NCBI GenBank assembly: GCA_965230295.1
Contig: OZ246001.1
Span: 448,001-512,000, forward strand
Direction of reading: 5' to 3'
DNA length: 64,000 bases
Origin: Marinicella sp.
GTDB lineage: Bacteria > Pseudomonadota > Gammaproteobacteria > Xanthomonadales > Marinicellaceae
Shown here: piece by piece, positions 2-56,089 of the stretch
Layout: each line of letters opens with the position of its first letter
Position numbering within the stretch: position 1 is the first letter of the stretch
Notes under the pieces: model-generated
Database searches by the model: none
Told to the model about the DNA's origin: nothing
Seen by the model: the letters and a program-made list of their open reading frames with translations, nothing else
Made by a program: the position numbers and the translations under genes

Positions 2-214
2 AACCTCACCGAATCGGTTAATCTACCAGCCAACAGCGGTGTGGTGATTGATGCTGTTGGGACGGTAGCGATCGGTACCACTGGACTGATCAGCAACACC
101 GCTCAAGTGATTGTTCCTCTGGGGGTGACTGACACCAATCCCGGTAACAATTCTATGGTTTTGGATATTCTTGAATCCACCGGTGATTTAATCTTTGCGG
201 ATGATTTTGAGTGA
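2..214 (+). CDS. 3' end of a probable secreted DUF11-like domain protein ending in DLIFADDFE (partial)
   Basis: Open frame from window edge: ...ISNTAQVIVPLGVTDTNPGNNSMVLDILESTGDLIFADDFE*. The NTA...D.NPGNN pattern is typical of DUF11. Not in the ORF track because the start lies outside the window. Confidence 0.75.
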   Translation, partial: NLTESVNLPANSGVVIDAVGTVAIGTTGLISNTAQVIVPLGVTDTNPGNNSMVLDILESTGDLIFADDFE

Positions 215-223
215 CTGGAATAA

Positions 224-679
224 CTAGGCCCTGTTAACACTATAGGGATTTTTAATGTTGAGCTCAGACAGAAATTTGATCTCAAGGGCTTCCATCACAA
301 GCGCATCCTCATCTTCCACATGATCATACCCCAATAAATGCAACATACCATGGATGCTGATATGAGCCCAATGGTCATTGACCGCCTTGCCTTGCTCTTG
401 AGCTTCTTGTTCAACAACCGATGCGCAGATGGCCAAATCACCCAGATGATCTGATTCAACAAAATCAGGCACTTCACTGGGGAATGAAAGTACGTTGGTT
501 GGCTTGTCTTTACTGCGGTAGGTGTGGTTCAAATATCGGCTTTCTGTTTCATCAATGATCTTGATACACACTTGGCCAGAGGTTTTTAAGTGGTCAGCCA
601 CCTGATTCAACCAACTTTGGAATTGCTTTGAATCAGGTGCTGCTAAATGGTCTTCATTGATCAGTTCAAGACCAATCAT
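224..679 (-). CDS. ybeY: rRNA maturation endoribonuclease YbeY
   Basis: TNVLSFP, LGDLAIC and HGMLHLLGYDH motifs; downstream of phoH/ybeZ. Confidence 0.96.
   Translation of the reverse strand: MIGLELINEDHLAAPDSKQFQSWLNQVADHLKTSGQVCIKIIDETESRYLNHTYRSKDKPTNVLSFPSEVPDFVESDHLGDLAICASVVEQEAQEQGKAVNDHWAHISIHGMLHLLGYDHVEDEDALVMEALEIKFLSELNIKNPYSVNRA
227..243. repeat. solo MITE terminal inverted repeat inside the ybeY 3' end
   Basis: GGCCCTGTTAACACTAT, preceded by TA, closely matches the ends of the element at 9870-10135. Confidence 0.6.
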
Positions 680-1656
680 GCGTCCTTGTTGTGGTGTTTC
701 TTGTTGTCGTAAGCATCCACAATTTTTTGTACCAGAGAATGTCTGACGACATCTTTGGATTTAAACCAGCTGAAACTGATGCCTTTGATGTCTTGCAGTA
801 TTTCCATGGCGTGTTTTAGACCCGATTTCTCACCAGGCCGTAAGTCAATCTGGGTGATGTCGCCAGTGACCACCACTGTGGTGTTAAACCCGGTTCGGGT
901 CAGAAACATCTTCATTTGTTCTACGGTGGTGTTTTGCGCTTCGTCTAAGATCACAAAAGCATCATTCAATGTTCGGCCTCGCATAAAAGCCAATGGAGCC
1001 ACTTCAATTTGATTCTTCTCCAACATTTTTTCGACTTTGTTGTTGCCCAACATGTCATACAAGGCATCGTACAAAGGTCGCAGATAAGGATCCACTTTGT
1101 CACTCAAATCACCGGGTAAAAAGCCCAGTCTTTCACCGGCTTCAACCGCAGGTCTGACCAACACCAATCGGCGCACCCGATCCATTAAAAAAGCTTCAAC
1201 AGCACAGGCCACAGCCAAAAAAGTCTTGCCTGTACCAGCCGGCCCTATACCAAAGTTAATGTCATGGGTCACGATGTTGTGCAGGTATTCTTTTTGATTG
1301 TCCGAGCGTCCAGTAATCACACCGGCTTTGGTCTGGATGGCCACTTCCTGGGGCTCATAATCAGGTTTGGAAGCATTACCAGCCAGTATCACATGTACAA
1401 TTTCAGGGTTCAGCGCTTCTTTTCTGGCTTCTTTAACCAACAAATTCAGCATCTTGGCAGCCTGATTGACTTGTGCTTCTTCGCCTTTGATTTGGAAATT
1501 TTGCCCGCGGGCATGGATGTCTGTTCCTGTGTGTTCAGCCAATAACTTTAAATGTACATCTTGCTGTCCATACAAATTGACCAAACTTCCGTTGTTGACG
1601 TCCAAAAATTCCATGTTTCGAACGGTAGATTTCATTTCTTTTACATTATTCATCAA
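676..1656 (-). CDS. ybeZ: PhoH family ATPase (YbeZ)
   Basis: GPAGTGKT Walker [26 protein letters not shown]. Confidence 0.95.
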
Positions 1657-2977
1657 TCAATACACGACCTCTTAAAGAGTTTCTTAATGCTTCGGTGATG
1701 ACCACATTGACCATCTGCCCAATCAACCGTTGTGGCCCAGCAAAATTGACCACCCGGTTGTTCTCTGTTTTACCAGAAAGTTCATCATCTGACCACTTAG
1801 ATGTGCCTTCAACCAGAATTTTCTGTGTGCTACCCACCATATTTTGACTGATTTCAGCAGCCATGTCATTGATGGTGGCTTGTAATTGCTGTAATCGGGC
1901 TTTTTTCTCATCTAAGGAGACCAAATCCGGCATTGAAGAGGCCGGTGTTCCAGGTCTGGCGGAGTAAATGAAACTGAATGACTGATCAAACCCAATGTCA
2001 GTGATTAATTTCATGGTGTCGTTAAAGTCTTTATCTGTTTCTCCCGGAAAACCCACAATAAAGTCAGAAGATAAACTGATGTCAGGACGGACTTCGCGCA
2101 GTTTTCTGATTTTTTGTTTGTACTCCAAAGCAGTGTGCCCACGTTTCATCATTGACAAGATGCGATCAGACCCTGATTGCACCGGCAAATGCAGATAATT
2201 GGCCAGCTCAGGGACATCTCGATAGGCTTCGATCAAACCGTCGGTAAACTCCACTGGATGAGAGGTGGTGAATCGAATGCGCTCAATGCCATCTATGGCA
2301 GCCACATAATGAATCAACAAGGCCAAATCAACGATGTCGCCTTCATGAGACAAGCCGCGGTATGCATTCACATTTTGACCCAAGAGATTGACTTCCTTAA
2401 CACCTTGTTCAGCCAATTGCATGATTTCAGACAACACCCCATCCAATGGACGAGACACTTCTTCACCCCGGGTGTAAGGTACGACACAAAATGAACAGTA
2501 TTTGCTACAACCTTCCATGATGGAGACAAAGGCAGCAGGCCCTTCTTTACGCGGTTTGGGTAAGTTGTCAAATTTCTCAATCTCAGGAAATGAAATATCA
2601 ATTTGTGGTTGTTGCTGCTTGTTCCGCTCTTCTAACAACTCAGGTAATCGATGAATGGTTTGGGGACCAAACACCAAATCCACATAAGGTGCCCGTTTGA
2701 TGATGGCTTCACCTTCTTGGGAGGCCACGCATCCACCCACACCAATGATCACATCCGGGTTGTTTTCTTTGATCTTTCTCCAACGGCCCAATTGAGAAAA
2801 CACTTTTTCTTGGGCTTTTTCACGAATTGAACAGGTGTTGATCAAAATCACATCTGCCTCTTCTTCGACATCAGTGACACTCAATCCATGAGATTTGAGT
2901 AGCACATCTTGCATTTTGTCAGAGTCATATTCATTCATCTGACAACCATGGGTTCTTATAAATACTTTACCGCTCAT
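1646..2977 (-). CDS. miaB: tRNA-i6A37 methylthiotransferase MiaB
   Basis: [10 protein letters not shown]-terminus, radical SAM motif CSKYCSFC, C-terminal TRAM domain. Confidence 0.97.
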
Positions 2978-3561
2978 AGTGTTTCTTGGTTCATTCTATC
3001 GACTAATTGTACAATGATTTGTGCTGTTAAGCCCCAAATCACATCACCATTGTAGTCAAAAACGTAATAGTGCCTGACCCCAATTGGTGTTTTGATTTTG
3101 TGTTTCACTCGGTTGTTTTTGTCTTGAAAAAAAGCAAAGGGCACACCAAATGCACGGGCCACCTCGTTGTGATCAATTTTCAAATGATTCACATCTTTGA
3201 TTTCACCCACAAACGGGGTGACATGAAAGCCACTGATGGATGGCAGTCCATCTAAAAAGCCCCACAGCTGAATCAAATCTCGAGGCACGCCTATTTCTTC
3301 AAAAGTTTCACGGTATGCGGTGTGCTTGATGTTTTTGTCTTGTGCTTCATAGCCACCACCGGGAAAACTCACTTGGCCTGAATGGTGTTTCAAATCGGCA
3401 TTGCGTTGGGTTAACAACACCCACGGTTCATCATCCTTCCAATAAAAAGGAAACAACACCGCTGCTGCCCGCTCCATATCACCACCTGAGCCTTTCCACA
3501 GATGTTCATCAATCAAATCACGATTGAGGTGAGGTTTAATTATTTGACTGAATTGTTGCAT
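2974..3561 (-). CDS. CoA pyrophosphatase, Nudix family (NudL-like)
   Basis: [16 protein letters not shown] followed by a Nudix box; IWGLTA. Confidence 0.9.
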
Positions 3562-3571
3562 TCTCTAAAGC

Positions 3572-3600
3572 AAAAAAAGGCAAGTTCTGAAAACTTGCCT
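3572..3600 (-). terminator. Rho-independent terminator after the FKBP gene
   Basis: AGGCAAGTT/AACTTGCCT stem followed by a T-run on the minus strand. Confidence 0.7.
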
Positions 3601-3640
3601 CTGCGATATCACCGTTTTGTTTGGCGATGCGAGCCGATGG

Positions 3641-4369
3641 TTATTTGATCGCCAATAAATGAACGTCAAATACCAATACTTCATTAGGACCAATTGGACC
3701 TTGGCCATTCACACCATATGCCATTTCAGGTGGTAAAAACACCTGCCATTTATCACCAGATTTCATCATTGGAATGATTTCTCTCCAACCAGGCATACCA
3801 ATCTTGCTCATGTCCATTTCCAAAGGCTGGCCATTTTTGTACGTGCTGTCAAATTCCTGGTAGTTGTCAAAAACTTCAGTACCAATCAATTTACCACTGT
3901 AATGTATTTCTACAGTATCATCCAGACTGGCGTTTTTACCAGAACCCGCTTCGATCACACGGTATTGAATGCCTGATGCCAACTCTTTGATGCCAGTCTT
4001 ACCACGGTTTTGTGCCAAAAACTGATCACTGCGTTGTTGGTTTTTATCAGCCAATGCCAAATACTCTTCACGTTGGAACAACTGCAATTTTTGTTGATAC
4101 TTGCCGTACTCCTGTGTCATCAACTCTTTGTCAAATGTCGGTTCTTGTTTAGTGGCTGCTTCACGCAGTCCTTTAACGGCCTGTTCAATGTCTAATTCGA
4201 ATTCACTGCCTTCACGACCAGCCGCTTGTAAACCCATGCGGTAGCCAATGGCATACGAAGCTGCAGCTTTATCAAATGTGATGTCTGAGCTCTTAGGAAC
4301 TTGTTGTTCATTTTGTGCCATGGCAGTTACAGTCAGTGCCAAAGACATCAAAGTCATAATTTTTCTCAT
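3641..4369 (-). CDS. FKBP-type peptidyl-prolyl isomerase (FkpA/Mip-like), exported
   Basis: Signal peptide, SYAIG, SGIQYRVI, FDS, PPEMAYG, IGPNEVLVFDVHL; start moved to ATG 4369, which has GAGG upstream. Confidence 0.92.
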   Translation of the reverse strand: MRKIMTLMSLALTVTAMAQNEQQVPKSSDITFDKAAASYAIGYRMGLQAAGREGSEFELDIEQAVKGLREAATKQEPTFDKELMTQEYGKYQQKLQLFQREEYLALADKNQQRSDQFLAQNRGKTGIKELASGIQYRVIEAGSGKNASLDDTVEIHYSGKLIGTEVFDNYQEFDSTYKNGQPLEMDMSKIGMPGWREIIPMMKSGDKWQVFLPPEMAYGVNGQGPIGPNEVLVFDVHLLAIK

Positions 4370-4505
4370 TCGTAACCTCTTAACAAAATCAGCCGCGTAT
4401 TGTACGCCAGCCATCTGAGTTAAACAAGACAAGCAAGCAACTAATAAGTTCAAATTTGGCTCTTCTTGAGCCAGTTGCAGGCACTTTTAACGCAAATATA
4501 ATGAT

Positions 4506-4535
4506 TTGAGGCCTGGGTTCATTTATTGCTATAAT
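4506..4535 (+). promoter_or_regulatory. putative sigma70 promoter
   Basis: TTGAGG-18-TATAAT with extended TG, 30 nt upstream of the enoyl-CoA hydratase start. Confidence 0.5.
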
Positions 4536-4564
4536 TTCGAGCTCTTTTAACCTTACATTGAATC

Positions 4565-5341
4565 ATGCCAAACGTCTTATCCAATCTTGAGAACAAAGTC
4601 CTCACCATCACCATCAATCGACCCGATAAACTCAATGCCTTAAATCAAGCCACATTGAAAGAACTTGATGCCATCATCAACCAGGCCAAAGACGATGACA
4701 ACACCGCTGCCATCATCATCACCGGCTCAGGTGAGAAGGCATTTGTAGCTGGTGCTGACATCTCAGAATTGGCCACCACCGATGCCATGACCGGCATGCA
4801 ATTTGCTCGTTATGGCCAATCGGTATTCAACAACATTGAAAACTGTGGCAAACCGGTCATCGCAGCGGTTAATGGTTTTGCCTTAGGCGGTGGTTGTGAA
4901 TTGGCCATGGCTTGCCACCTCAGAATCGCTTCTGACAATGCCAAATTCGGTCAACCAGAGATCAAATTGGGTGTGATTCCCGGCTTTGGCGGTACCCAGC
5001 GATTGACACGACTGGTCGGTAAAGGCAAATCCATGGAAATGAATTTATTGGGTGACATGCTTTCTGCCAATAAAGCCGAACAAATCGGCCTGGCCAATTG
5101 GGTGGTACCACAAGGAGAGTTGATGCCCACCGTTGAAAAAGTGGCCCAACAACTGGCCAACTCTGCGCCCATTGCTTTGAGCATGACCATCGATGCCATC
5201 AACAAAGGCCTTGAATGCGCCTTGCCAGACGCACTGGATTACGAGGTCAAAGCCTTCGGTATCTGCTGCGCTTCAGAAGATAAAAATGAAGGCACCAGTG
5301 CGTTCCTGGAAAAACGCGCGGCCAAATTCAGCGGCAAGTAA
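4565..5341 (+). CDS. enoyl-CoA hydratase/crotonase
   Basis: AFVAGADI, GFALGGGCELAMACH, FGQPEIKLG. Confidence 0.93.
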   Translation: MPNVLSNLENKVLTITINRPDKLNALNQATLKELDAIINQAKDDDNTAAIIITGSGEKAFVAGADISELATTDAMTGMQFARYGQSVFNNIENCGKPVIAAVNGFALGGGCELAMACHLRIASDNAKFGQPEIKLGVIPGFGGTQRLTRLVGKGKSMEMNLLGDMLSANKAEQIGLANWVVPQGELMPTVEKVAQQLANSAPIALSMTIDAINKGLECALPDALDYEVKAFGICCASEDKNEGTSAFLEKRAAKFSGK

Positions 5342-5362
5342 GGGCCACCACAACGTCGAAAT

Positions 5363-5387
5363 CAAAAGGCGCTGCAGGCGCCTTTTG
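5363..5387. terminator. bidirectional terminator hairpin
   Basis: CAAAAGGCGC-tgcag-GCGCCTTTTG between convergent genes. Confidence 0.7.
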
Positions 5388-5391
5388 GCTC

Positions 5392-5565
5392 TTATTTATC
5401 AGGCGGTTCATTTTGCTGGTCACCCATGGCCAGATTTAACCAGAACCAAAGCTCAACCACCGCTGCAATGATGATGACGACAACTGTGCCGGTCTTGAAA
5501 CCAATAAAATACAACAACAAGGCCAGGGCAGCCAGGGTCAATAAAGTCAGTCCTCGTGAGTTCAT
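5392..5565 (-). CDS. small (57 aa) membrane protein, two predicted TM helices
   Basis: MNSRGLTLLTLAALALLLYFIGFKTGTVVVIIIAAVVELWFWLNLAMGDQQNEPPDK; GAGGTG RBS upstream; terminator directly downstream. Confidence 0.7.
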   Translation of the reverse strand: MNSRGLTLLTLAALALLLYFIGFKTGTVVVIIIAAVVELWFWLNLAMGDQQNEPPDK

Positions 5566-5721
5566 ATCACCTCAATCAAATAAAGATCATATTAACAAAA
5601 TCACCGACCAGAATCATCAGTCGTAAGTCATGATCTACTTGCGACAAAAATAATTAAATTTACCCACATGATCTTGACGCTTTTTGGTTAAAATGATGGG
5701 TTTGATTCACCTTTGACCAAC

Positions 5722-8547
5722 ATGAAAAGTATTTCCCTTCGAGGCGTCAGAACCCACAATTTAAAAAACATAGATATCGACTTGCCCCGTGATCAATTCA
5801 TCGTCATCACGGGCTTGTCAGGCTCTGGCAAATCTTCCTTGGCATTCGACACCATTTATGCTGAAGGACAACGTCGTTATGTGGAGTCTTTATCTGCTTA
5901 CGCCCGACAATTTTTATCGATGATGGACAAGCCGGATTTGGACCACATCGAAGGGTTGTCACCCGCCATTTCAATTGAACAAAAGTCGACCTCTCACAAC
6001 CCACGCTCTACGGTAGGCACCATCACCGAAATCTATGATTATTTGCGGTTATTGTATGCCCGCATCGGCACACCCAAATGCCCTGATCATGCGATATCAT
6101 TGGAAGCTCAGGAAGTCTCAGAAATGGTCGATAAAGTTTTGGCCTTGGAAAGTGGTCGAAAACTGATGTTACTGGCACCGGTGGTCAGAAACCGCAAAGG
6201 CGAACACCTGTTGTTATTGGAGCAATTACGCGGCAGTGGTTTTGTGCGGGTCAGGATCGATGGGACTTTGTACAACATTGACGACCTCCCCAAGTTAAAC
6301 CCCAAACAAAAACATGACATTGAGGCGGTGGTGGACCGCTTTAAAGTCAAAGAAGGCATCGCCCAGAGGTTGGCGGAATCTTTTGAAACCGCCCTGTCGT
6401 TGTCAGAAGGTTTGGCCATGGTGGTTTCCTTTGATGATGGAGGTGACACGAACTTGATGTTCAGTTCTTTGTTTTCCTGCCCTGTGTGCAATTACTCACT
6501 GAGTGAATTGGAACCCAGGCTGTTCTCTTTCAATTCTCCCAATGGGGCCTGCAGTGAATGCGATGGCTTAGGCGTCAGTCAGTTTTTTGATCCCGAACGG
6601 ATCATCGTCAATAAAAACTTATCCATGGCAGAAGGCGCTGTTCGCGGTTGGGACAAACGCAATGGCTGGTACTTTCAATTGCTACAAGCGGTGGCTAAAA
6701 AATATAAATTCGATGTCAACACACCACTCAAAGATTTACCACAAAAAGTCCAGGATGTGTTGTTTTATGGCAGTGGTGAGGACAACATCAAATTCACCTA
6801 CTACAGCGACAAAGGTCAGTATGAGCGCAACCACCCGTTTGAAGGCATCGCCAACAACATGAAGCGCCGTTATCAGGAAACCGAGTCATCCATGGTTCGT
6901 GAAGAACTGAATAAGTACATCAGCAAAAAACCCTGCCCACAATGTGAAGGCCAGCGATTGAATCGCAGTGCCCGCAATGTGTTCATCAATGATGTGCCCT
7001 TACCGCACATCAATGCCATGTCTATTGCTGGCGCTTTGCGGCATTTTGAAGAACTGAACTTAACAGGGCAAAAGGCGCAAATAGCAGAAAAAATCATCAA
7101 GGAAATCCGCGAACGCTTGAGCTTTTTGGTGAATGTCGGCCTGAACTATTTAACGGTTGATCGCAAAGCCGATTCACTCTCTGGGGGTGAAGCACAACGG
7201 ATTCGGTTGGCCTCTCAGATCGGTGCTGGATTGGTGGGTGTGATGTATGTCTTGGATGAACCGTCCATTGGCTTGCACCAGCGTGACAATGAAAAATTGT
7301 TGAAAACCTTGGTTAATTTGAAAAACTTGGGAAACACGGTGATTGTGGTTGAACACGATGAAGATGCGGTCAGGATGGCTGATCATGTGGTGGACATCGG
7401 ACCGGGTGCTGGTGTTCATGGTGGGCACATCGTGGCTGAAGGCACGCCGAAACAGATTTGTGCCAACAAAAATTCAATCACTGGTCAATACCTCACTGGC
7501 GCACTTAAGATTGACATTCCCCAAAAAAGACACCCCGTGGACAAGAAAAAGGTGTTCAAGCTTAATGGCGCAACCGGCAACAACCTGAAAAATGTCAATG
7601 TTGAAATCCCAGCGGGCCTGTTTACTTGTATCACAGGCGTTTCTGGCTCAGGCAAATCAACTTTAATCAATGAAACCGTCTACAAGGTGCTGGCCAATCA
7701 CTTGAATCGGGCCTCACATCAGTCACAACCCTATAAAGATTTCAAAAACATCGAATTGTTCGACAAAGTGGTGGACATCGACCAGAAACCCATCGGTCGG
7801 ACCCCAAGATCCAATCCGGCCACATATACACAATTATTTGGCCCCATCAGGGATTTGTTCTCTAACACACCCGAAGCCAGAACCCGAGGCTATAAACCTG
7901 GTCGATTCAGTTTCAATGTCAAGGGTGGACGTTGCGAAGCTTGTCAGGGTGACGGTGTAATCAAAGTCGAAATGCACTTTTTACCAGATGTTTATGTGAC
8001 CTGTGACACCTGCAAGGGTAAACGCTACAACCGTGAAACACTGGATGTGCAATACAAAGGCAAAAACATCTATGAAGTTCTTAATATGACCGTAGAGGAT
8101 GCCCTACCCTTTTTCTCTGCCATACCCAACATCGCCACCAAGCTGCAAACGCTGTTGGATGTGGGTTTGAGCTACATCACCCTTGGACAAAATGCCACCA
8201 CCTTGTCCGGAGGCGAGGCCCAGCGTGTCAAACTGGCCAAAGAACTGTCCAAGAGAGACACTGGCAAGACCGTCTATATTTTGGATGAGCCAACCACCGG
8301 GCTACATTTTGCAGACATCAAACAATTGCTTAAAGTCTTGCATCATTTGCGAGATAATGGCAACACCATTATGGTCATTGAACACAATCTAGATGTGATC
8401 AAAACAGCCGATTGGATCATAGACCTGGGACCCGAAGGCGGACATGGTGGCGGTGAAATCATCGCCAAAGGTACACCCGAAACATTGGTTAAAGTAAAGA
8501 AAAGCCACACGGGTGCTTTTTTAAAGCCGATCCTTGAGAAAGGCTAA
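5722..8547 (+). CDS. uvrA: excinuclease ABC subunit A
   Basis: Two ABC ATPase domains ([26 protein letters not shown]) and zinc fingers; alternative TTG start at 5713. Confidence 0.98.
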
Positions 8548-9853: not shown

Positions 9854-9869
9854 CCTTCTGCTGATACCT

Positions 9870-13394: not shown

Positions 13395-14213
13395 TCAATT
13401 CAGGTTGGTTGAAGTACAAATTGAGTTCCAGGCTTTTTCAGGCAAATCATTCAACAAAACATGCCCCCCGGAGAATTCATCGAGCATATAATCTTGATCA
13501 ATCACCCACCCACCGGCAATAAAATCTGGACGATCATTCAACACAGCTGCATAAAGGAAATCGACATTGCCCACTGAAACAAAAATGGGTATGACCCGAC
13601 TGGCATTACTTGGCGTATAACCATTGGGCGCTGCATATTGATCTAAATCACCGGCACTGACCGCATAAGCAGCAAAATAATCGGCATTGTTTAATGCAAT
13701 GGCATGCATCACATGCCCACCTCCTGAAAAGCCCCAAACATACCGGCGGGAGGTTTCGATGTTGTATGCCGACTCCATGTCGGTAAAAATGCTGGCAAGA
13801 ATCTGGGAGTCCACCCCATAGACCCAACCTCCATCATCACCTGTTGACACCTGAGACACCACAATAAAGCGATTTTCTTCCGCTTCTGCTTGCCACAAGT
13901 TGCGCATATCCAGTGCCGCAGCTGTTGCGTTGCCAGCTCCTGCTGTTCCATGCCAGACCACCATGATCGGCATGGCTTCAGCAGCAGCATAACTACTTGG
14001 CACATAGATATAGTAAGTATAATTTCCCAACACAGTCCTTTGCTGTAGGCCGGGGAATGTACCACCTGATCCATTGGACGGCACTGAGTCATTCTCATTG
14101 CTGTCAGCGAAAATCATGTCGGGACATTGATTGATACTGGGCACTGTGGCCACTGATTGGGTGAACCAAGCCAAACTACAAATCAATACCAAAAAACATT
14201 CAGTCTTTTTCAA
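13395..14213 (-). CDS. secreted alpha/beta hydrolase (PHB depolymerase/esterase-like)
   Basis: Signal peptide, [19 protein letters not shown] nucleophile elbow, GGH; TTG start overlaps the parC end. Confidence 0.75.
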
Positions 14214-46635: not shown

Positions 46636-48048
46636 ATGGATACCATGAAACCAAAAACAAAACCCATAGCAATGATATGCTGGCTGTGCTTAAGTCTAAA
46701 TTCCCAAGCAGTTAATCTCAGCCCCAATGGACATGGAGAAGTACTACTTTACCCCTATTACACTGTCAACAACGAGCTGAATACTGTGTACTCAGTCACC
46801 AACACCACCGACCAGGCCAAAGCCATAAAACTTCGTTTTCTTGAAGGTGAAGCTGGTTATGAAGTGTTTGATTTCAATGTATATTTAGCGCCATTTGATG
46901 TGTGGACTGGGGTTTTGGTGCCCACCACATCTACCATTTCGGGACACGTAGGAGAGCCCAGCGTCTCCCACATGTCTCCTGACGCCTCCTGTGCGCCTTT
47001 CATCGATAAATCAGGGCAGGAATTTCTTCCTTACATCATTGATGCGGATGCCCCCAATAACAATTTACAACGGGCCACCGACGGACATTTTGAGGTCATT
47101 GAGCTGGGTGTCGTAACAGAGGGCCCAACCGGTTCTCTCGCGGCCTTGACCCACGTCAACGGTGCACCAGCTGATTGTACACAATTGCAGACTGCCTGGG
47201 AATCGGGTGGCTATTGGTTCTTTAATGGCGATGCTGACATTGGCTTGCCAACTGGCGGTCTATTTGGATCAGCCAGTCTGGTCAATGTCACTGAAGGCTT
47301 GTCATTCAGTTACAGTGCTGAAGCACTGGAAGACTTTTGGCAAGGGCCAGGCAGCCACAGTGAACCAGGCAGCCTGTTCCCCAACTTGGCCAATGCAGCT
47401 CCAGTATCCAAAGTGCTGCTTGACAACCAATTACTCACATCACAGTGGGCCACAGGATATGAAGCTGTTTCAGCTGTCTTAATGAAACAATCAATTTTCA
47501 ATGAATTTGATTTCACTGAGGCCAATGCTGGCAGATCAGAATGGGTGATTACTCTACCAACAAAATCATATCACACCAACAATGTTTCTGTGATTCGACC
47601 TTTTGAAAATCCATGGGATGGTTTTTTCGCCTGCGAAGAATTTCAGGCCACTACTTTTGATCGCGAGGAGCAATCATACATCATGGATACCGGTAGTGTT
47701 TTTCCTCGGCCTGCACCTGGAAGAAACCCGTCATTATGCTTTCACTCCAATATCGTTCAATATGAACCAGGAAGTGAAATTCCAGAGTTGGTTTCAAAAA
47801 TATTAGGCTCTGATAATTTGATCACTATTTACGATTTTGATCCTATATTTGTCACCGAAAGTGGTTGGGTCGATATGTTTTTTGACGATAATTTTCAATC
47901 AATGAATCCGGTATCAGGTTTTGGATTTTTTGGACTTCCAGCTATTGGCTTTCAAGTACAACAACTCACCAACGCCAATGTGCAACCTGGGCTGATTGCC
48001 CAATATGGACGCTTATTCAAGCATAAAGACAGACGGATTAGTTTCTGA
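46636..48048 (+). CDS. secreted cell-surface (S-layer-like) protein, paralog 1
   Basis: Signal peptide; GEVLLYPYYTV...NTT...KAIKLRF.EG...FDFNVYLAPFDVW; EWVITLPTK. Confidence 0.65.
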   Translation: MDTMKPKTKPIAMICWLCLSLNSQAVNLSPNGHGEVLLYPYYTVNNELNTVYSVTNTTDQAKAIKLRFLEGEAGYEVFDFNVYLAPFDVWTGVLVPTTSTISGHVGEPSVSHMSPDASCAPFIDKSGQEFLPYIIDADAPNNNLQRATDGHFEVIELGVVTEGPTGSLAALTHVNGAPADCTQLQTAWESGGYWFFNGDADIGLPTGGLFGSASLVNVTEGLSFSYSAEALEDFWQGPGSHSEPGSLFPNLANAAPVSKVLLDNQLLTSQWATGYEAVSAVLMKQSIFNEFDFTEANAGRSEWVITLPTKSYHTNNVSVIRPFENPWDGFFACEEFQATTFDREEQSYIMDTGSVFPRPAPGRNPSLCFHSNIVQYEPGSEIPELVSKILGSDNLITIYDFDPIFVTESGWVDMFFDDNFQSMNPVSGFGFFGLPAIGFQVQQLTNANVQPGLIAQYGRLFKHKDRRISF

Positions 48049-48064
48049 GGAAGGTAATAAAGCT

Positions 48065-49468
48065 ATGAGGGATAAAATATTGAAACGATTGAAAACCATC
48101 GGTACGGGTTTACTGATCACTCTATGTGGCGCTTCGCAAGCTGTTAATGTGAATGACTCAGGCCTGGGAGAAGTGTTGATCTACCCCTATTACACCGTCA
48201 ATAACAACCACAACTCTTTATACAGCATTGTCAACACAACAGCAGATACCAAGGCAGTCAAAATCACCTTTCATGAAGGTGAAAACGCGGCCGAGGTTCT
48301 TGCATTTAACGTTTATTTGAGCGCTTTTGATATTTGGGTAGGTGCTTTAACGTCCACCACATCTACCATGGCAGGTCATGTGGGTGAACCCAGTGTGGTA
48401 CATGTTTCTAATGATACATCATGCGCCCCCTATCTAATCAAAACCGGACAAGAATTTTTACCCTTCATCATCGACTTGGATCCGAATAACAACAGCATGC
48501 AGCGAGCGACTGAAGGCCACATCGTGGTGATGGAGTTAACTACATTCAATGGCTCGACCGTAGCCTGGTCAGATCATGGGAGCACCGGCGTCCCTGCTGG
48601 TTGTGAACTCATCATAAATGATTGGAGTGACAATGGTATTTATGACACCGCCGATGAAGCCGATCCCAATGGTGGCTTGGTGGGCTCAGCCACCCTCTTG
48701 AATGTGCTTGAAGGTACTGCTGTTGGCTATGATGCGATGGCGCTTGAACATTTCTGGCAAGGGCCTGGTCAACACACCGAACCTGGCAGTCTGTCACCCT
48801 CTCTGGGCCATGCATTTCCTCAGTCACTCAGAATGGTCAATGGTACAGCAGTGGCGACCGATTGGCCATCAGGTGCGCAGGCTGTATCAGCCACTTTGAT
48901 GCAACACAAGCTTTATAATGAATACGATTACACGGCTATTTTGAGCGGCCAATCTGAGTGGGTGATCACATTCCCCACCAAGAATTTACATGTCAACGGC
49001 ATCCAGCCATTGCCACCCTTCAATGAAATTTGGAATGGTGATGAAGCTTGTGAAATCCTGTCCATCAGCCTATGGGACCAAGGTGAACTCAGTGAATTAA
49101 ATTCAACAGCAAACGCTTGTTACAGTACCAATGTATTGGAATTCTTGGCCCCTGGTTCGCCTCCTGGCGGATCATTCAACATCCTCGGTTCTGAAAACGC
49201 CATAGAGGTTCTGGGTGTCGATCAAGCCAATGCCACTGCTGCAGGTTGGGCAGCAGTAACATTCAATGCACCTGGTCAGTTCATGACCAGCTCATCAGAC
49301 ATCAGATATTCCGGCTTACCTGCAACGGGCTTTATGATACAAAGGTTCGTCAACGCTGCTGCCCCTGCTGGAGCCCTGGCTATTTATGAAGATTTGTTTC
49401 CACACAGAACTCATTCTGTCATCATGGCAGCGACCGATTTAATCTATTTGGATGGTTTTGAAAATTAA
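48065..49468 (+). CDS. secreted cell-surface (S-layer-like) protein, paralog 2, with DLIYLDGFEN tail
   Basis: Colinear homolog of 46636..48048; start set at ATG 48065. Confidence 0.65.
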   Translation: MRDKILKRLKTIGTGLLITLCGASQAVNVNDSGLGEVLIYPYYTVNNNHNSLYSIVNTTADTKAVKITFHEGENAAEVLAFNVYLSAFDIWVGALTSTTSTMAGHVGEPSVVHVSNDTSCAPYLIKTGQEFLPFIIDLDPNNNSMQRATEGHIVVMELTTFNGSTVAWSDHGSTGVPAGCELIINDWSDNGIYDTADEADPNGGLVGSATLLNVLEGTAVGYDAMALEHFWQGPGQHTEPGSLSPSLGHAFPQSLRMVNGTAVATDWPSGAQAVSATLMQHKLYNEYDYTAILSGQSEWVITFPTKNLHVNGIQPLPPFNEIWNGDEACEILSISLWDQGELSELNSTANACYSTNVLEFLAPGSPPGGSFNILGSENAIEVLGVDQANATAAGWAAVTFNAPGQFMTSSSDIRYSGLPATGFMIQRFVNAAAPAGALAIYEDLFPHRTHSVIMAATDLIYLDGFEN

Positions 49469-50052: not shown

Positions 50053-50215
50053 GTTGAACACTCTGAAAAAATTAAAAACTTTATATATGATTGATCCAAT
50101 CACATTTCAAGGTGTGTTTTCACGTGAAAAAAACATGGTTACCGCTTATAATCATTGGGCAAAAAATCTAACCCCAACCATTCCAAACAAATATTCATCC
50201 AACATGAGGACTGTC

Positions 50216-52327
50216 ATGACTAAAAAAATATCCATACTGGCCTACCTACTGCTGCTCGGATCCTGTGCCCAACAACCCGTTATCAAAACCACCAGCCAAG
50301 CAACGGAAACCGACGCATTTCTTTGGTTAGAAGATGTTGAAGGCGAGGATGCCATCGCTTGGGTAAAAGAACGCAATAAAAAATCATTGGATGTAATCAA
50401 AGCACATCCTAAGTTTGATCAATTGTTTGAAAATAATAAAGCCTTATACAATTCCAAAGAAAGGATTCCTTATGTCACCCAGATGAATGGCTTCCTGTAT
50501 AACTTCTGGCGCGATGAAACCCATGTACGGGGCATCTATCGCAGAACAACATTGGCATCTTACAAACAAGAAGACACTGAATGGGAAACTGTGCTTGATG
50601 TGGATGCTTTAGCCACTGCGGATGAAGAAAATTGGGTGTACAAAGGCATGTCATGTCGATACCCGGACTATGACCGGTGCTTGGTCAACTTATCTCGAGG
50701 TGGGGCTGATGCCACTGTGATCAAAGAGTTTGATTTGAACAGCAAGTCTTTTGTAGAAGACGGGTTCTATTTGCCTGAATCAAAAAGCAGCTTGGCATGG
50801 GTGGATTTGGACACGTTGATGGTAGGTGCCGACTTTGGTGAAAACAGCATGACCGATTCAGGCTACCCCAAAATCACCAAGTTATGGTCTCGTGGTAGTG
50901 ACGTGGCCGATGCTGAAGTATTATTTACCGGTGAACAAACCGACGTCGGTGTTTATCCTGCAGTGATCCATGATGGTGATCAATCCTACAAATTCATCGT
51001 CCAAGCGGACAGCTTTTACACCAGAAACTGGTACATACTCGATCAGGACAACCAACCCAAACTGATGGATTTGCCCAATGACATCGGGTTTTCAGGCTTG
51101 ATCAATGACCAAGCCATCTTCGAACTCAAATCTGATTGGCAGCCGGCAGATGTCGCATTCACACAAGGCAGTTTGATTGCCATAGACATGTCAGACTTCT
51201 TGTCAGGCAGCAGAGCCTTCGTTGAAATCATGAAACCTGATGACAAGACTTCAATCAGTTCGGTTTCAACCACCAAAAACCTGGTGTTGGTGAATACCCT
51301 ACAAGACGTGAGTTCAGTGATCTATCAAATGAATTTTTCTGACAACCAATGGCACAGCAAACCGGTTGATTTGCCTGCCTTTGGTTCCATGTCCATTTCT
51401 GGTACCAGTGACCAAAACGACGACGTTTTCATCAATTACAGCAACCACCTGACCCCATCAACGCTTTATTATTATGATGGCAACGCTGGTCAGTCAGAGC
51501 CCATCAAGTCATTACCGGCATGGTTTAACACCGATGATCTCAAAGTTGAACAACACTTCATGGTTGCCAAAGATCAAACCAAGGTCCCTTATTATGTGGT
51601 GATGCGTAAGGACCTGGAATACAACGGTAAGAATCCAACCCTGTTGTACGGTTATGGCGGATTCGAGGTATCTATGCGACCCAATTATTCAGCCACTGCA
51701 GGTACCAACTGGCTTGAGTCTGGTGGCGTTTATGTGGTTGCCAACATCAGAGGTGGTGGTGAATATGGTCCCGATTGGCATCAGGCTGCGCTGAAAGAAA
51801 ATCGCCATGTGGCCTTCAATGATTTCATAGGCGTTGCCGAAGATTTGATTGAAAAGAACATCACATCACCAGAACACTTAGGAATCTATGGTGGTTCCAA
51901 TGGCGGATTGCTGGTGGGTGCGGCCTTCACCATGCGTCCTGACTTATTCAATGCGGTGGTTTGTGCGGTGCCGTTGTTGGACATGAAGCGGTACAACAAA
52001 TTATTGGCGGGCGCCAGTTGGATGGGCGAATACGGCAACCCCGACATCCCGGAAGAATGGGCATACATCAAAACCTATTCTCCCTACCACAACCTCAAAA
52101 CAGACACCAATTACCCGGCGGTGTTTTTCACCACATCCACCAGAGATGACCGGGTTCATCCTGGGCACGCCAGGAAAATGGCCGCTAAAATGGAAGACAT
52201 GGGACACAAATACTATTATTATGAAAACATCGAAGGTGGCCATGGGGGTGCATCAAACAATAACCAATCTGCTTATTTAAGCGCTTTGGTATACTCTTAT
52301 TTATGGCAACAACTGGCTCCTAAATGA
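50216..52327 (+). CDS. prolyl oligopeptidase (S9A), lipoprotein
   Basis: Lipobox LGSC, YGYGGF, GGSNGGLL, DDRV, GGHG. Confidence 0.93.
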   Translation: MTKKISILAYLLLLGSCAQQPVIKTTSQATETDAFLWLEDVEGEDAIAWVKERNKKSLDVIKAHPKFDQLFENNKALYNSKERIPYVTQMNGFLYNFWRDETHVRGIYRRTTLASYKQEDTEWETVLDVDALATADEENWVYKGMSCRYPDYDRCLVNLSRGGADATVIKEFDLNSKSFVEDGFYLPESKSSLAWVDLDTLMVGADFGENSMTDSGYPKITKLWSRGSDVADAEVLFTGEQTDVGVYPAVIHDGDQSYKFIVQADSFYTRNWYILDQDNQPKLMDLPNDIGFSGLINDQAIFELKSDWQPADVAFTQGSLIAIDMSDFLSGSRAFVEIMKPDDKTSISSVSTTKNLVLVNTLQDVSSVIYQMNFSDNQWHSKPVDLPAFGSMSISGTSDQNDDVFINYSNHLTPSTLYYYDGNAGQSEPIKSLPAWFNTDDLKVEQHFMVAKDQTKVPYYVVMRKDLEYNGKNPTLLYGYGGFEVSMRPNYSATAGTNWLESGGVYVVANIRGGGEYGPDWHQAALKENRHVAFNDFIGVAEDLIEKNITSPEHLGIYGGSNGGLLVGAAFTMRPDLFNAVVCAVPLLDMKRYNKLLAGASWMGEYGNPDIPEEWAYIKTYSPYHNLKTDTNYPAVFFTTSTRDDRVHPGHARKMAAKMEDMGHKYYYYENIEGGHGGASNNNQSAYLSALVYSYLWQQLAPK

Positions 52328-52367
52328 TGATGAAGTTGATTTTTCAAATACAAAATAGAGGAATGAA

Positions 52368-53630
52368 ATGAAAATTACTGTCTTGCTTTTTTTGGCCTTG
52401 GTTGCCATGCCATCGGTTGCTGACATCCACAATGACGTCGATGCGATTGAACCCAAGTTACTGGAGTGGCGTAGACATTTGCACCAATATCCAGAATTAA
52501 GTAATCGTGAATTCAAAACCGCGGCCTATGTTGAAAAGCACCTGAGGGCTTTAGGCATGGAAGTGCAAACCGGGATTGCTTTTACAGGTGTTGTTGGTAT
52601 TTTAAAAGGTGATAAACCTGGCCCCTTACTTGCACTCAGGGCTGATATGGACGCTTTACCAGTTAATGAGCAAGTTGATTTGTCTTTTGCCTCTAAAGTC
52701 ACAGCCGAATACCGTGGTGAAACGGTGGGTGTGATGCATGCCTGTGGCCATGATACACATGTGGCCATGTTAATGGCAGCTGCAGAAGTCTTTGCTCAAA
52801 ACAAAGCTGACCTGGAAGGGACCTTGATGTTCATATTCCAACCTGCAGAAGAAGGCGCTCCTGGTGATGAAGAAGGCGGTGCAGAATTGATGTTGGCAGA
52901 AGGTTTGTTCGACAAGATGAAACCAGAAGCGGTTTTTGGCTTACATGTGACGTCCAACATGAACACCGGGTATGCGGCTTTTCGAACTGGCCCCTATATG
53001 GCTGCTGTTGATGATTTCGAACTCAAAGTAATCGGTAAACAATCCCATGGTTCCAGACCCTGGAGTGGCATTGATCCCATAGTCACCAGCGCACAGATCA
53101 TTAATTCTGTCCAAACCATTGTTTCCAGAAAAACCGATGTCACCAAAGCCCCTGCTGTGGTTTCTTTCGGCGCCATCAAAGGCGGTATCCGCAACAACAT
53201 CATTCCGGATGATGTCACCATGGTGGGCACCATCAGGAATTTTGATATGGGTATTCGTGATGACATTCACCACCAATTGAACAACATCATCACCCATGTG
53301 GCACATGCCAATGAAGCCGAAATTGAATTCAAAATCAATGAGGGCTACCCAGTAACCGTGAATGACCCGGCATTGGGTGATCGAATGTTGCCCTCTTTAC
53401 ACAAAGTTTTTAGCGAAGACAAAGTGGTTTATCCAAGTTTAATCACGGGTGCAGAAGATTTTTCATTTTTTGCTAACGAAGTTCCCGGCATGTATTTCTT
53501 TATGGGTGTCACGCCTATAGAACAAGATGCCAAAACCGCACCAACCAATCATTCGCCTCATTTTTATGTGGATGAAACCGCACTGTTGAATGGAGTCAGA
53601 GCCTTTGTCCAACTGGTCCAAGATTACTGA
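52368..53630 (+). CDS. exported M20D amidohydrolase
   Basis: LRADMDALP, MHACGHD, FQPAEE, GAEDFS. Confidence 0.92.
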   Translation: MKITVLLFLALVAMPSVADIHNDVDAIEPKLLEWRRHLHQYPELSNREFKTAAYVEKHLRALGMEVQTGIAFTGVVGILKGDKPGPLLALRADMDALPVNEQVDLSFASKVTAEYRGETVGVMHACGHDTHVAMLMAAAEVFAQNKADLEGTLMFIFQPAEEGAPGDEEGGAELMLAEGLFDKMKPEAVFGLHVTSNMNTGYAAFRTGPYMAAVDDFELKVIGKQSHGSRPWSGIDPIVTSAQIINSVQTIVSRKTDVTKAPAVVSFGAIKGGIRNNIIPDDVTMVGTIRNFDMGIRDDIHHQLNNIITHVAHANEAEIEFKINEGYPVTVNDPALGDRMLPSLHKVFSEDKVVYPSLITGAEDFSFFANEVPGMYFFMGVTPIEQDAKTAPTNHSPHFYVDETALLNGVRAFVQLVQDY

Positions 53631-55005
53631 TAGCAGGCACCTTCTGTGGGTCTGGTTGTTGATGCTCGGTGCATGTCAGAGCAATAAAAAACCAGACCTG
53701 GCCCAGCTATACCAGCAACACGCGACTGATCACAGCAACACCCCTTTGGTGCTGATTCATGGCACCATGGGCAGCAAATTACGTTTTAAAGAAACACAAC
53801 AACAAGTTTGGCCTGGAAAAATCAATCAACTGATATTCTCCAATTACAAAAAACTGGCCAACCGCATAGATGCCTCCGGACTTGATGTTGTGGAGCCGGA
53901 CATTGAGTCATATGCCATTTTTGATTCTTATTCAGGTCTCAGTATTTATGATGAAATCATTGATACATTGGTTGAATTTGGAGGCTATCAGCAAAGTGAT
54001 TTCAATCACTTTGATCGCACCAAACGCAACTTATACATTTTTCATTACGACTGGCGTCAGGACAATGTAAAAAGTGCTGCTAAGTTGGATGAATTTATTG
54101 AGCAAGTATTGCAGAATCATCCCAATCACGACCAGGTCGATGTGGTGGCCCATTCCATGGGTGGCTTGATCCTGCGATATTACCAGCGTTATGGCAGTCA
54201 TGATGTTTTGGAGAACATTGAAAAATACATGAGCGGTGAATGGACACCTGACCTGGAACATTATTCAAAAACACACCGAATCAGACACGCCATTTTCTTG
54301 GGAACACCGCAGTTGGGTTCAGTTAAATCGATCAAGCGCTTGCAAGAAGGCTTTGATTTCAACCTGAGAAACATCCCTGTTGAAGTACAAATCACCATGC
54401 CAACAGTCTATCAATTATTACCTCATCCACAGCATCAATGGTCTCTTGACCCCAATGGTGATCCCGTCGATTTGGATTTATTTGACCCCTCTCTGTGGAA
54501 AAATAACCAATGGTCTATTTACAACCCGCAAGTGCAAAAAAAAATCATCAAGCGGGCTCAAAATGAAACATCAGGGCAAGCAGAAGTCAGTAAACTGCAA
54601 CAATTTTTTAACCATCAACTCACGAGGGCACGCCTGTTCTGGCTGGCCTTATCCCCTGGTTTTGAAGATGACCATGAAGGATTCATTATTATGGGTGGTG
54701 ATTGTAAAGACACTTTAAGTCATTTGATTGTCTCACAGGACGAACAATTTATGCAGCTTGGTGACAAAGTCAGCCTGAGTGATCATTTTGGCAGCAGGGC
54801 TCAATACCAAAACATTTTGTTTGAACCTGGAGATGGTCAGGTCAGCAAATCTTCCTTATTAGGTCAAGTCCATGACATTGCCACCCACGAGAACCACAAA
54901 ACCATCAAAATCAAATACCCCGTGTTCGTTTGTGAAGAACACTTCAAGCTCACACAAAACTTAACCTTTCAAGACAATTTATTACATATTCTTTTGCATG
55001 AATGA
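53590..55005 (+). CDS. LCAT/lipase-like alpha/beta hydrolase, probable lipoprotein
   Basis: IHGTMGS, YDWRQD, AHSMGG, GTPQLGS, GDG.V; lipobox LGAC; start uncertain. Confidence 0.8.
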   Translation: MESEPLSNWSKITDSRHLLWVWLLMLGACQSNKKPDLAQLYQQHATDHSNTPLVLIHGTMGSKLRFKETQQQVWPGKINQLIFSNYKKLANRIDASGLDVVEPDIESYAIFDSYSGLSIYDEIIDTLVEFGGYQQSDFNHFDRTKRNLYIFHYDWRQDNVKSAAKLDEFIEQVLQNHPNHDQVDVVAHSMGGLILRYYQRYGSHDVLENIEKYMSGEWTPDLEHYSKTHRIRHAIFLGTPQLGSVKSIKRLQEGFDFNLRNIPVEVQITMPTVYQLLPHPQHQWSLDPNGDPVDLDLFDPSLWKNNQWSIYNPQVQKKIIKRAQNETSGQAEVSKLQQFFNHQLTRARLFWLALSPGFEDDHEGFIIMGGDCKDTLSHLIVSQDEQFMQLGDKVSLSDHFGSRAQYQNILFEPGDGQVSKSSLLGQVHDIATHENHKTIKIKYPVFVCEEHFKLTQNLTFQDNLLHILLHE

Positions 55006-55267
55006 ATAAGTCCCATTGTGTTCCATACCAGGTCTTTTTAATCTTGCCAGCATAGTGTTCAGCTTAAATGATTCGGCAACAAATTTTGTCACCTTGTTCT
55101 TAATAAAATTGAAGTTTCTTCAAAAAACCCGTCATTTATTCACTTTCTTACATACACAAAGTATGTCTATGTATTATTCTGTCAAATTAATCAGATATTT
55201 GCACATTAGCTTGAATACCACCGTATTAAGTTTTAATTTAATCAGGGTGTGATTAATTAATGTGTGT

Positions 55268-56089
55268 ATGAAGATTACATCGGTTTGTGTTTTATTGTGT
55301 TTTACTGCGACTTCAATGGCCTTTGAAGAAATTGAGGTCACACCTATGTATCCCAATGGTTGGGAAGCGGTCAATGTGCGTGATGATGCCATTGTCGAAT
55401 TGAGTCAAAATCAACCCCTGTTCGGTGACGGGTCACTGCTGTTTGCCACTGACACCCAAACATCTGGACAAGACAAAGCGGATTTCCAGAATCTGTGGCA
55501 GCAGTCCACATCCGGGATTGACTTTCCGAATCGCACCTTAGGCAACATATCCAATCTGAACTACGCCTGGTATCGTGACTCATCCAGCACCACCACTCCA
55601 CATTTCACCCCTGTGTTTCGACTTAACTTTTATGATGATGGCGGAACCCCTGGTGATTTAAGCGATGATGTTCTGGGCGTATTGGTATGGGAAGGTGTTT
55701 ACAATGGCTACAATACACCCATTGAGGACAGTTGGGAAATTGTAGACATGATGACTGATAACTTTTGGGTCTTTGTCTCACAAAGCGCCAATGGATCTGG
55801 TGTGGTCCCGATCTACAACATGACATTGGACGACTGGATCAACAGTTCCAATGTGGTATCAGGCAATTTGGACATCACGTTAACTGCCAACACTTACATC
55901 ATTGGCATCAATGTGGGAGTGGGCTCTGGCTGGGGCAGTACTTTTTTAGGGTATGTGGATACCGTCCGCATTGCTTTTGGAGGCAGTGATGACACCTTAT
56001 TCAATTTTGAGCTGTGCCCGGTGTTTGTTCCTAACACCAACCCTGACGTCTTGTTTAACGACTCATTTGAATGCTTCAAAAGATTTTAA
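55268..56089 (+). CDS. secreted beta-rich hypothetical protein with DVLFNDSFE tail
   Basis: Signal peptide; acidic and aromatic-rich. Confidence 0.8.
   Translation: MKITSVCVLLCFTATSMAFEEIEVTPMYPNGWEAVNVRDDAIVELSQNQPLFGDGSLLFATDTQTSGQDKADFQNLWQQSTSGIDFPNRTLGNISNLNYAWYRDSSSTTTPHFTPVFRLNFYDDGGTPGDLSDDVLGVLVWEGVYNGYNTPIEDSWEIVDMMTDNFWVFVSQSANGSGVVPIYNMTLDDWINSSNVVSGNLDITLTANTYIIGINVGVGSGWGSTFLGYVDTVRIAFGGSDDTLFNFELCPVFVPNTNPDVLFNDSFECFKRF

Follow-up and report, generated by a model that had tools for sequence, protein, structure and literature searches.

Three proteins encoded in a 64,000-nt stretch of the Marinicella sp. genome (contig OZ246001.1, positions 448001–512000; "the window" below) end in variants of the same short acidic-aromatic tail, D-[LV]-I-F-x-[DNS]-[GD]-F-[ED]. 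This nine-residue tail is a real, strongly non-random and lineage-restricted C-terminal tag, found at the ends of 119 open reading frames (ORFs) of the genome, a single contig of 4,008,074 bases with 44% G+C. Judged from sequence comparison, its function class is well supported: it would be a C-terminal sorting or secretion signal. The reading put first here, with confidence somewhat short of even, is that it is a portable tag for the cargo of one lineage of type II secretion system (T2SS), that with a PDZ domain in GspC, and that it would act in secretion or in surface retention. The tag instances in the window are as follows.

1..214, forward strand: 3′ end of the gene for a 356-aa DUF11-domain exported protein, ending ...STGDLIFADDFE-stop

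47996..49468, forward strand: 490-aa ORF, downstream member of a tandem pair of paralogues from an exported family without annotation, ending ...ATDLIYLDGFEN-stop

55262..56089, forward strand: 275-aa exported protein of no known family, ending ...NPDVLFNDSFECFKRF-stop / ...DVLFNDSFECFKRF-stop

The tag of the DUF11 protein, DLIFADDFE, is at 185–211, with the stop codon at 212–214. Its gene begins upstream of the window (the full gene is at genome positions 447144–448214, locus L004), and the full-length product has a signal-peptide-like N-terminus and a Pfam DUF11 match (E 1.4e-12). In the second protein, DLIYLDGFE (49436–49462) is followed by N and the stop. The third tag, DVLFNDSFE (56045–56071), deviates in having L in place of Ile, and another five residues (CFKRF) come before the stop. 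The second and third proteins have no match in Pfam or NCBIfam, nor do the tails of any of the three match a family there.

Genome-wide counts are based on a set of 3,266 crude, non-overlapping ORFs; the tagged set was passed through a simple score filter and includes tails that end in D, N or Q instead of E. The 119 tagged ORFs make up about 3.6% of the whole. Position by position, the predominant residues are D (93), L or V (41 and 25), I (103), F (114), any residue, D, N or S (63, 30 and 17), G or D (71 and 25), F (117) and finally E (71) or D (40); the other last residues are Q (five) and N (three), and none is aromatic. Conservation drops below 0.5 bit right upstream of these nine residues. 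The stop codon stands directly at the tag in 70 cases, and in the other 49 there are 1–7 more residues, mostly polar. Net charge of the tail is −3 to −5, combined with three bulky hydrophobic residues.

Stricter patterns were also counted. In six frames (17,987 stop-to-stop frames of at least 60 aa), D.[ILVM][FYW].[DN].[FN]E has 48 matches, 44 of them no more than five residues from a stop and 30 directly at one. The core [ILVM][FY].[DN][DGSTEN]FE is matched 58 times in the 3,266 ORFs, 52 times within 6 aa of the C-terminus, versus a single match, not at an end, on reversed sequences. At the DNA level, the pattern for I-F-x-[DN]-[DGE]-F-E-stop has 30 matches in the genome and none backwards. 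A DNA repeat or mobile element at gene ends was considered as a source of the tails and ruled out: tag codons vary synonymously at each position, TAA, TAG and TGA are all in use, and the DNA 3′ of the stop is unrelated, so it is the peptide rather than a DNA element that is selected. Sub-variants of the tail occur as well. A run of FG-GAP repeat proteins at genome positions 3793676–3851343 has Cys after the tag (...GFDCI, ...GFDCN, ...GFECI), and longer tails elsewhere in the genome end ...CP.

Two other window genes bear on the extent of the tagged set.

46636..48048, forward strand: 470-aa untagged paralogue directly upstream of 47996..49468, ending ...KHKDRRISF

13395..14213, reverse strand: 272-aa PHB-depolymerase/esterase-like exported protein, with DMIFADSNE (14094–14120) just after the signal peptide; not a tag instance

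The untagged paralogue, likewise without any family match in Pfam or NCBIfam, is 43% identical to its tagged neighbor. As listed, the two ORFs overlap by 53 bases (47996..48048); the true start of the second is likely a later in-frame Met (MRDKILKRL...), which gives a signal peptide and removes the overlap. There are 11 paralogues of this family in the genome, and the tag is found on only one of them, the second copy in the window. An untagged copy beside a tagged one shows the tail to be an addition to a single member of the family. The family as a whole (about 470 aa, exported, N-termini of the form ...GEVL[LI]YPYYTVNN..., another example being at genome positions 855496–856917) has no match whatever in Pfam or NCBIfam, and three copies are in tandem at 2.433–2.437 Mb (2432775–2436986).

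The first-pass annotation had joined the esterase string to the three tails as four copies of one tag. All four strings are indeed present in the sequence, and the signal peptides it ascribed to the three complete ORFs are borne out, signal-peptide-like N-termini being present on all three tagged proteins and the esterase. The three C-terminal cases belong to a pattern far above chance, but the N-terminal one does not: it has no Phe at position 8, where the tag is nearly invariant, and esterase-type patterns (D.[ILVM]F.D..E) away from C-termini number four, versus three in a reversed-sequence control. On both grounds it is at chance level, and it was rejected as a second tag location and excluded from the tag set.

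The tagged proteins are of many families, and the initial idea of a portable tag on unrelated exported proteins holds across the genome. By a crude hydrophobicity and charge rule (a signal-peptide-like N-terminus with no later transmembrane segment), 100 of the 119 are called exported, versus 808 of 3,147 untagged ORFs (odds ratio 15, p 8e-39), so the enrichment that had been proposed as a check on the tag is found. No tagged protein has a hydrophobic 19-mer beyond residue 50, in keeping with the earlier remark that the tails have no transmembrane helix or basic tail, and just two have a lipobox-like string. A Pfam scan of 55 proteins (53 cargo with an E-ending tail and two with a further domain after the tag) identified a range of enzymes, including an endonuclease I with a lamin-tail domain, peptidases (M28, S8, M14, M64 and reprolysin), arylsulfotransferase and GSDH. 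Other domains were cadherin-like, Big_9, DUF11, FG-GAP, Kelch, LRR, MAM, LamG, CotH, DUF285 and Calx-beta/lactonase repeats; one protein belongs to the choice-of-anchor I family, and HemolysinCabind was not matched in any of the 55. Tagged genes also tend to cluster, with 22 adjacent pairs versus 4.3 expected.

The choice-of-anchor I protein (locus L019) provides the strongest argument for placing the tail among C-terminal sorting or secretion signals. Residues 47–497 of its 517 match NF038117 at 496.4 bits (cut-off 300), and it matches PF22494 at 363.6 bits. Among its 120 best database relatives, those from Marinicella and kin end ...GTIGIFRLIDVIFxNxFE, with the tag 2–4 residues past the last propeller strand. 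At that exact point, homologues from other lineages have PEP-CTERM (TIGR02595, 22.1 bits, P0089), IPTL-CTERM (TIGR04174, 25.3 bits, P0065), a type IX secretion system (T9SS) type A domain (TIGR04183, 40.6 bits, P0102) or RTX repeats (P0045), which supports the initial suggestion that the tag stands in for a sorting signal. No choice-of-anchor I orthologues were found in the five tag-free genomes searched. The tail itself belongs to none of these types. NCBIfam/TIGRFAM tail models, 24–27 positions long, detected TIGR02595 and TIGR04174 on untagged homologues in the same hmmscan runs, and gave no match on tagged proteins at E up to 1 or 10, including the DGFE-type tails and their longer forms ...GGFEGADTSRWSEAVVP (P0052) and ...DGFESGDTSAWSASCP (a protein of the Marinicella genome). 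The first-pass exclusion of PEP-CTERM, GlyGly-CTERM and LPXTG is therefore upheld, and extends to IPTL-CTERM and T9SS; no existing Pfam or NCBIfam model matches the tag.

Some six exported proteins of the same genome (g2, g690, g820, g1953, g2374 and g3230) end in an IPTL-CTERM-like signal, with xPVPVx, a hydrophobic helix and basic residues, suggesting that a classical tripartite signal is used alongside the tail without a transmembrane helix.

Structural models were compared for the tag in two settings. AlphaFold2 gave a confident propeller for the choice-of-anchor I protein (alignment of 57 relatives; mean pLDDT, the program's per-residue confidence, 89). The last propeller strand (497–506) takes in the first two tag residues, and residues 509–513 have pLDDT below 50 and no secondary structure. 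In three other proteins of the genome (reading frames of 962, 1375 and 1983 aa), the tag is internal and followed at once by a homologous C-terminal domain of about 90 aa.

Genome 1421533–1424421 (L054): tag plus ~90-aa C-terminal domain

Genome 1502236–1506363 (L062): tag plus ~90-aa C-terminal domain

Genome 3172754–3178705 (L055): tag plus ~90-aa C-terminal domain

This domain ends in a thrombospondin-type-3-like Ca-binding loop (...P.GD[WFY]D.DG..N..D..PF). A profile of tag plus domain matched 68 clusters at E ≤ 0.001 among 1.84 billion representatives; the approximately 50 single-stretch matches are all C-terminal, and nearly all begin with the tag motif. The AlphaFold2 model of the domain is a helix, a hairpin and a helix at pLDDT 88–96, preceded by the tag at about 50, and a Foldseek search against the PDB gave no match at E ≤ 0.001. 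The domain was considered as a fused receptor and rejected, because the genome encodes no free-standing homologue and the database matches are all either C-terminal copies or short fragments.

Low model confidence for the tag both at a protein end and ahead of the extra domain suggests an exposed linear motif at a domain boundary rather than a strand of a fold, and the tail is predicted to behave as a flexible, exposed linear motif. This runs counter to the original suggestion of a structural strand, made from a possible resemblance of F-x-D-x-F-E to the start of MAM/LamG-type jelly rolls. The tail might also be likened to the TonB box (D-T-hydrophobic run) or to FxDxF, an adaptor motif of eukaryotes, but no reading here relies on either likeness. 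In its general form, the strand suggestion would make the tail the first beta-strand of a lost MAM/LamG-like or other C-terminal domain, either functionless or completing a partner's fold in trans. Longer versions of the tail do exist (...DAVFSDGFESGDTSAWSASCP in the Marinicella genome, ...DGLFAGGFEGADTSRWSEAVVP in P0052), and the ~90-aa domain is directly preceded by the tag in all three of its Marinicella copies as well as in nearly all of the ~50 database clusters, and both points favor it. Nevertheless, AlphaFold2 builds the tag into neither the following domain nor the preceding propeller, and conservation is sharp over nine residues and nil around them, unlike a decaying domain. It is also implausible that 119 independent truncations would fall at one residue. 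Nor did a partner lacking a strand come to light; in the genome, the domain has no homologues beyond its three C-terminal copies. A remnant or donated strand seems very unlikely overall.

The distribution of the tail among related bacteria was surveyed in 200 genomes of the order (Lysobacterales), labelled by family as f1–f12, using the DNA pattern for I-F-x-[DN]-[DGE]-F-E-stop. It is present in 123 of them, unevenly spread. Families in which it is regularly found are f1 (23/24 genomes), f3 (8/8), f4 (24/25), f5 (4/4), f9 (14/15) and f11 (24/24), while f2 (1/25), f6 (0/2), f7 (9/24, with 0/12 in its genus g11), f8 (8/24) and f12 (7/24) are mostly free of it. A single match in total was found in 119 genomes from 119 other families of the class, in accord with a link to Xanthomonadales-related proteomes that the first reading had pointed out. 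A wider scan for exact D-x-I-F-A-D-G-F-E-stop, with one genome for each of 185,579 species, gave 113 places. Among the 80 listed, 77 are titled Marinicella, Dokdonella, Pseudofulvimonas, Wenzhouxiangella(ceae), Rhodanobacteraceae, Lysobacterales/Lysobacteraceae or unclassified Gamma-/Proteobacteria, and the remaining three are two Thermoanaerobaculia metagenome-assembled genomes and one from Alcanivoracaceae. Cultured bacteria with the exact tail include Marinicella litoralis, Marinicella pacifica, Dokdonella soli and Pseudofulvimonas gallinarii. The tag is all but confined to Lysobacterales (Marinicella, Wenzhouxiangellaceae, Dokdonella, Pseudofulvimonas).

Within the order, the tag co-occurs with one type of T2SS. 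The Marinicella genome has gspC-D-E-F at 654–660 kb and gspL-M-N at 2.630–2.633 Mb, and its GspC consists of a T2SSC domain and a PDZ domain. GspC of this type and GspL (PF05134) were profiled in 100 genomes of the order. In tag-rich families, 53 of 55 genomes have the GspC (f1 10/10, f3 7/8, f4 11/11, f5 4/4, f9 10/11, f10 1/1, f11 10/10), versus none of 11 in tag-free f2. It is also present in f6 (2/2) and f7 (11/11). The only match among 11 f8 genomes is to the PDZ region alone, and ten f12 genomes have five full-length matches and one that is PDZ-only. The distribution of GspL agrees with that of GspC across the 100 genomes.

Family f12 is mixed. In its first ten genomes, GspC and tails coincide, both being present in the same five (G012, G033, G052, G070 and G095). 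Ten further genomes served as a forward prediction: the two that carry the tag (G156 and G184) have GspC, and the eight that are tag-free do not, for a total of full-length GspC in 7/7 tag-bearing versus 0/13 tag-free genomes. One genus is split in the same way, with G095 having both tag and GspC and G079 neither. By a wider pattern the tag-bearing f12 genomes have 4–33 tails, and controls 0–1.

T2SS in general was considered as the correlate and set aside: the pseudopilin GspG is still found in tag-free f12 and f8 genomes and in one of three tag-free f2 genomes tested (G052 has three GspG matches). The association is therefore with a particular T2SS lineage rather than with T2SS at large. GspN (PF01203), considered as a possibly sharper correlate, is present in tag-free f12 and in f7 genus g11 and does not discriminate. 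In G070, two tagged genes (...RDVIFANGFD and ...DDVVFADGFD) and a TPR kinase gene lie directly upstream of gspC-D-E-F and divergent from it. In the Marinicella genome, the region directly upstream of gspL-M-N (genome 2621196–2630070, locus L064 1197..10073) encodes a lipase, then DUF1302, DUF1329 (LolA-like), BNR/Ycf48-like and MMPL/RND transporter proteins, and looks like a conserved envelope lipid-handling cluster.

If the tail does mark cargo of this T2SS lineage, the tagged proteins would first be exported by their Sec signal peptides, without becoming embedded in the membrane. The tail, exposed and flexible on the folded protein, would then be read as a linear peptide by a component of the envelope, and this reader would route the protein to, or keep it on, the pathway of the T2SS with PDZ-bearing GspC and Pfam T2SSL GspL. 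The reader may be the T2SS itself or an accessory to it, and the tail may act either in crossing the outer membrane or in later holding at the cell surface. Its lack of a transmembrane segment and its equivalence to T9SS- and type I secretion system (T1SS)-type signals in the choice-of-anchor family favor a role in secretion; the abundance of adhesins among the cargo and the equivalence to PEP-CTERM and IPTL-CTERM favor retention. The more specific form, in which the tail is a linear, transferable signal for this T2SS lineage, recognized in the periplasm by one of the Gsp components or by an accessory, is possible but doubtful. Canonical PDZ-ligand binding is unlikely, given that 41% of tags have further residues behind them and that the tag ends in an acidic residue. 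A complex prediction for GspC residues 60–288 (alignment A4) with the last 40 residues of the DUF11 protein scored 0.00, in a single run without controls that counts neither way.

Several observations weigh against an assignment to this T2SS lineage. The search for co-occurring machinery that the first-pass annotation had recommended gave the clear contrast in f12, but other families deviate from it. Genus g11 of f7 (GspC and GspL in 8/8 genomes) and family f6 (2/2) have no tails, so this T2SS type is not sufficient. Conversely, four f8 genomes with 1–3 strict-pattern tails (G131, G019, G007 and G139) have no T2SSC match, although a fifth (G181) does, and the system is perhaps not strictly necessary either. 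Related genomes not being independent, as few as two or three gains or losses may lie behind the f12 contrast, and the T2SS lineage might merely accompany a large secretome. Tags adjoin gsp genes only in G070 among about eight genomes compared by listed coordinates, and not in the Marinicella genome. The 49 tags with 1–7 trailing residues, and the three with a ~90-aa domain, are unlike a canonical PDZ ligand, and some cargo, at up to 3,682 aa, are larger than is usual for T2SS substrates. Neither the genes up to three positions from tags nor co-occurrence in genomes of the order led to a reader protein.

Some of the same evidence can be read in terms of anchoring alone, with the acidic-aromatic tail holding a protein at the surface after any route across the outer membrane. 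This could be non-covalent, by cation-bridged lipopolysaccharide binding or docking on a surface protein, or could involve cleavage and covalent transfer as by the T9SS sortase PorU. The cargo domains are mainly adhesin-like or surface-type (cadherin-like, DUF11, FG-GAP, LRR, and choice-of-anchor I, whose name reflects alternative anchors), the tail replaces the true anchor signals PEP-CTERM and IPTL-CTERM in homologues, and its negative charge with three bulky hydrophobics would suit such a role. Tolerance of trailing residues or a domain is a better fit to a cleavage or recognition site than to a free-end ligand; where the stop is right at the tag, however, as in 70 of the 119, cleavage past it would release nothing. 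No candidate sortase-like enzyme or receptor was found, nor any recurrent neighbor gene besides the kinase/sigma modules described below, and retention alone, though compatible with the link to one T2SS lineage, leaves it unexplained. A pure anchoring tag is rather unlikely on balance.

The genes around the tagged ones suggest a signalling role as another alternative to a tag for T2SS cargo. Within three genes of tags, just two non-cargo families recur, namely membrane Ser/Thr kinases and extracytoplasmic function (ECF) sigma factors of PF07638; apart from these modules and further tagged paralogues there are no other recurrent neighbors. Nine of 20 kinase paralogues, which have long TPR regions, are this close to a tagged gene (permutation mean 4.0, p 0.011), as are six of ten PF07638 paralogues (permutation mean 2.0, p 0.006). 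The 11-paralogue, S-layer-like family represented in the window is near tags in 4/11 cases, about chance. Operon-like modules at genome positions 3246864–3254756 (L056) and 1157202–1162668 (L057) encode an ECF sigma factor (PF07638), tagged secreted proteins, an FHA-GAF-GGDEF protein and a TPR Ser/Thr kinase.

On this basis the TPR-rich kinases, paired with ECF sigma factors, might sense the tails in a DegS-like manner, reporting secretion load or controlling cargo expression. TPR domains are known for binding acidic C-terminal peptides, such as the EEVD of Hsp70/Hsp90. Some operons combine sigma factor, tagged genes and kinase, and in G070 a TPR kinase adjoins both two tagged genes and gspC. 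PF07638 sigma factors (E ~1e-47 to 1e-59) are nonetheless found in tag-free genomes of f7 genus g11, f2 and f12 (G056, G006, G013, G012 and others), so the module does not follow the tag, and it was rejected as the reader. Some 20 kinases for 119 cargo proteins amount to no specificity, and adjacency is equally explained if the modules regulate neighboring secreted-protein genes, which is the simpler view of them. Tails as signalling ligands are highly improbable.

A gene for a 210-aa rhomboid-family protease lies at genome positions 2961687–2962319 (L058 6688..7320), between tagged genes at 2959170–2960609 and 2965140–2966750. Because the tail has no transmembrane segment, an intramembrane protease of this type does not fit as its reader, and the rhomboid might act on the IPTL-like tails instead.

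Several new envelope machines, among them sortase, exosortase, rhombosortase and the T9SS sortase, came to light through C-terminal sorting tags. The choice of T2SS cargo is a long-standing question, for which the prevailing view is a conformational signal. The tag considered here marks about 3.6% of a proteome with nine residues and no membrane anchor. No description of it was found in the open-access literature. New here are the logo for the whole proteome, the exchange of signals in the choice-of-anchor family, the composite of tag and domain, the finding against the kinases and the association with a T2SS lineage. If a T2SS does read the tail, it would be the first sequence-defined T2SS targeting signal, T2SS secretomes would become predictable from sequence, and reporters might be exported by grafting on nine residues. 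As a surface-retention tag, it would still provide a sequence rule for the Lysobacterales exoproteome and a compact handle for protein display.

Compared with known systems, the tail appears to work like a C-terminal sorting signal, yet fits none of the described families. PEP-CTERM/exosortase, IPTL-CTERM, GlyGly-CTERM/rhombosortase and LPXTG/sortase resemble it in being short C-terminal signatures on many unrelated proteins with signal peptides, restricted to certain lineages, and PEP-CTERM and IPTL-CTERM share its slot in the choice-of-anchor I family. Unlike in these tripartite signals, no transmembrane helix or group of basic residues follows the tag motif. A protease within the membrane or at its face could therefore not read the tag in the way that it reads them. 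The T9SS type A C-terminal domain (TIGR04183/PF18962) of the Bacteroidota is closer in one respect, as a signal without a transmembrane segment on Sec-exported proteins, with many cargo per genome; it directs passage through the outer membrane and surface attachment, and it is carried by one choice-of-anchor I homologue (P0102, above). It is, however, a folded beta-sandwich of about 70–100 aa, whereas the tag is a nine-residue and, by prediction, flexible peptide, and the tag's hosts are Gammaproteobacteria with T2SS genes rather than Bacteroidota.

T1SS substrates have no Sec signal and usually have RTX repeats upstream, in contrast to the mostly signal-peptide-bearing tagged cargo without HemolysinCabind matches. 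In the periplasm, the C-terminal tails of outer-membrane proteins are recognized through beta-augmentation or a PDZ domain, and both their beta-signal and the DegS-activating tails (YxF-COOH) are, like the tag, short aromatic-rich motifs at the C-terminus of exported proteins. The beta-signal has a terminal aromatic residue, usually Phe, and closes a beta-barrel, while the tag ends in E, D, Q or N on cargo with soluble enzyme or adhesin folds. The canonical PDZ ligand has a free carboxy-terminus and usually a hydrophobic last residue; the tag has an acidic or amide one, often with residues, and in three cases a domain, beyond it.

For T2SS, the established view, as put in two papers (PMC12369372, PMC7949064), is that no linear signal is known. 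A parallel is the secretion of VesB in Vibrio cholerae, which is reported to be dependent on the PDZ domain of EpsC, with the information lying in an Ig-fold (PMC12369372). In the present case it would lie instead in a linear tail, one that co-occurs with a PDZ-bearing GspC lineage.

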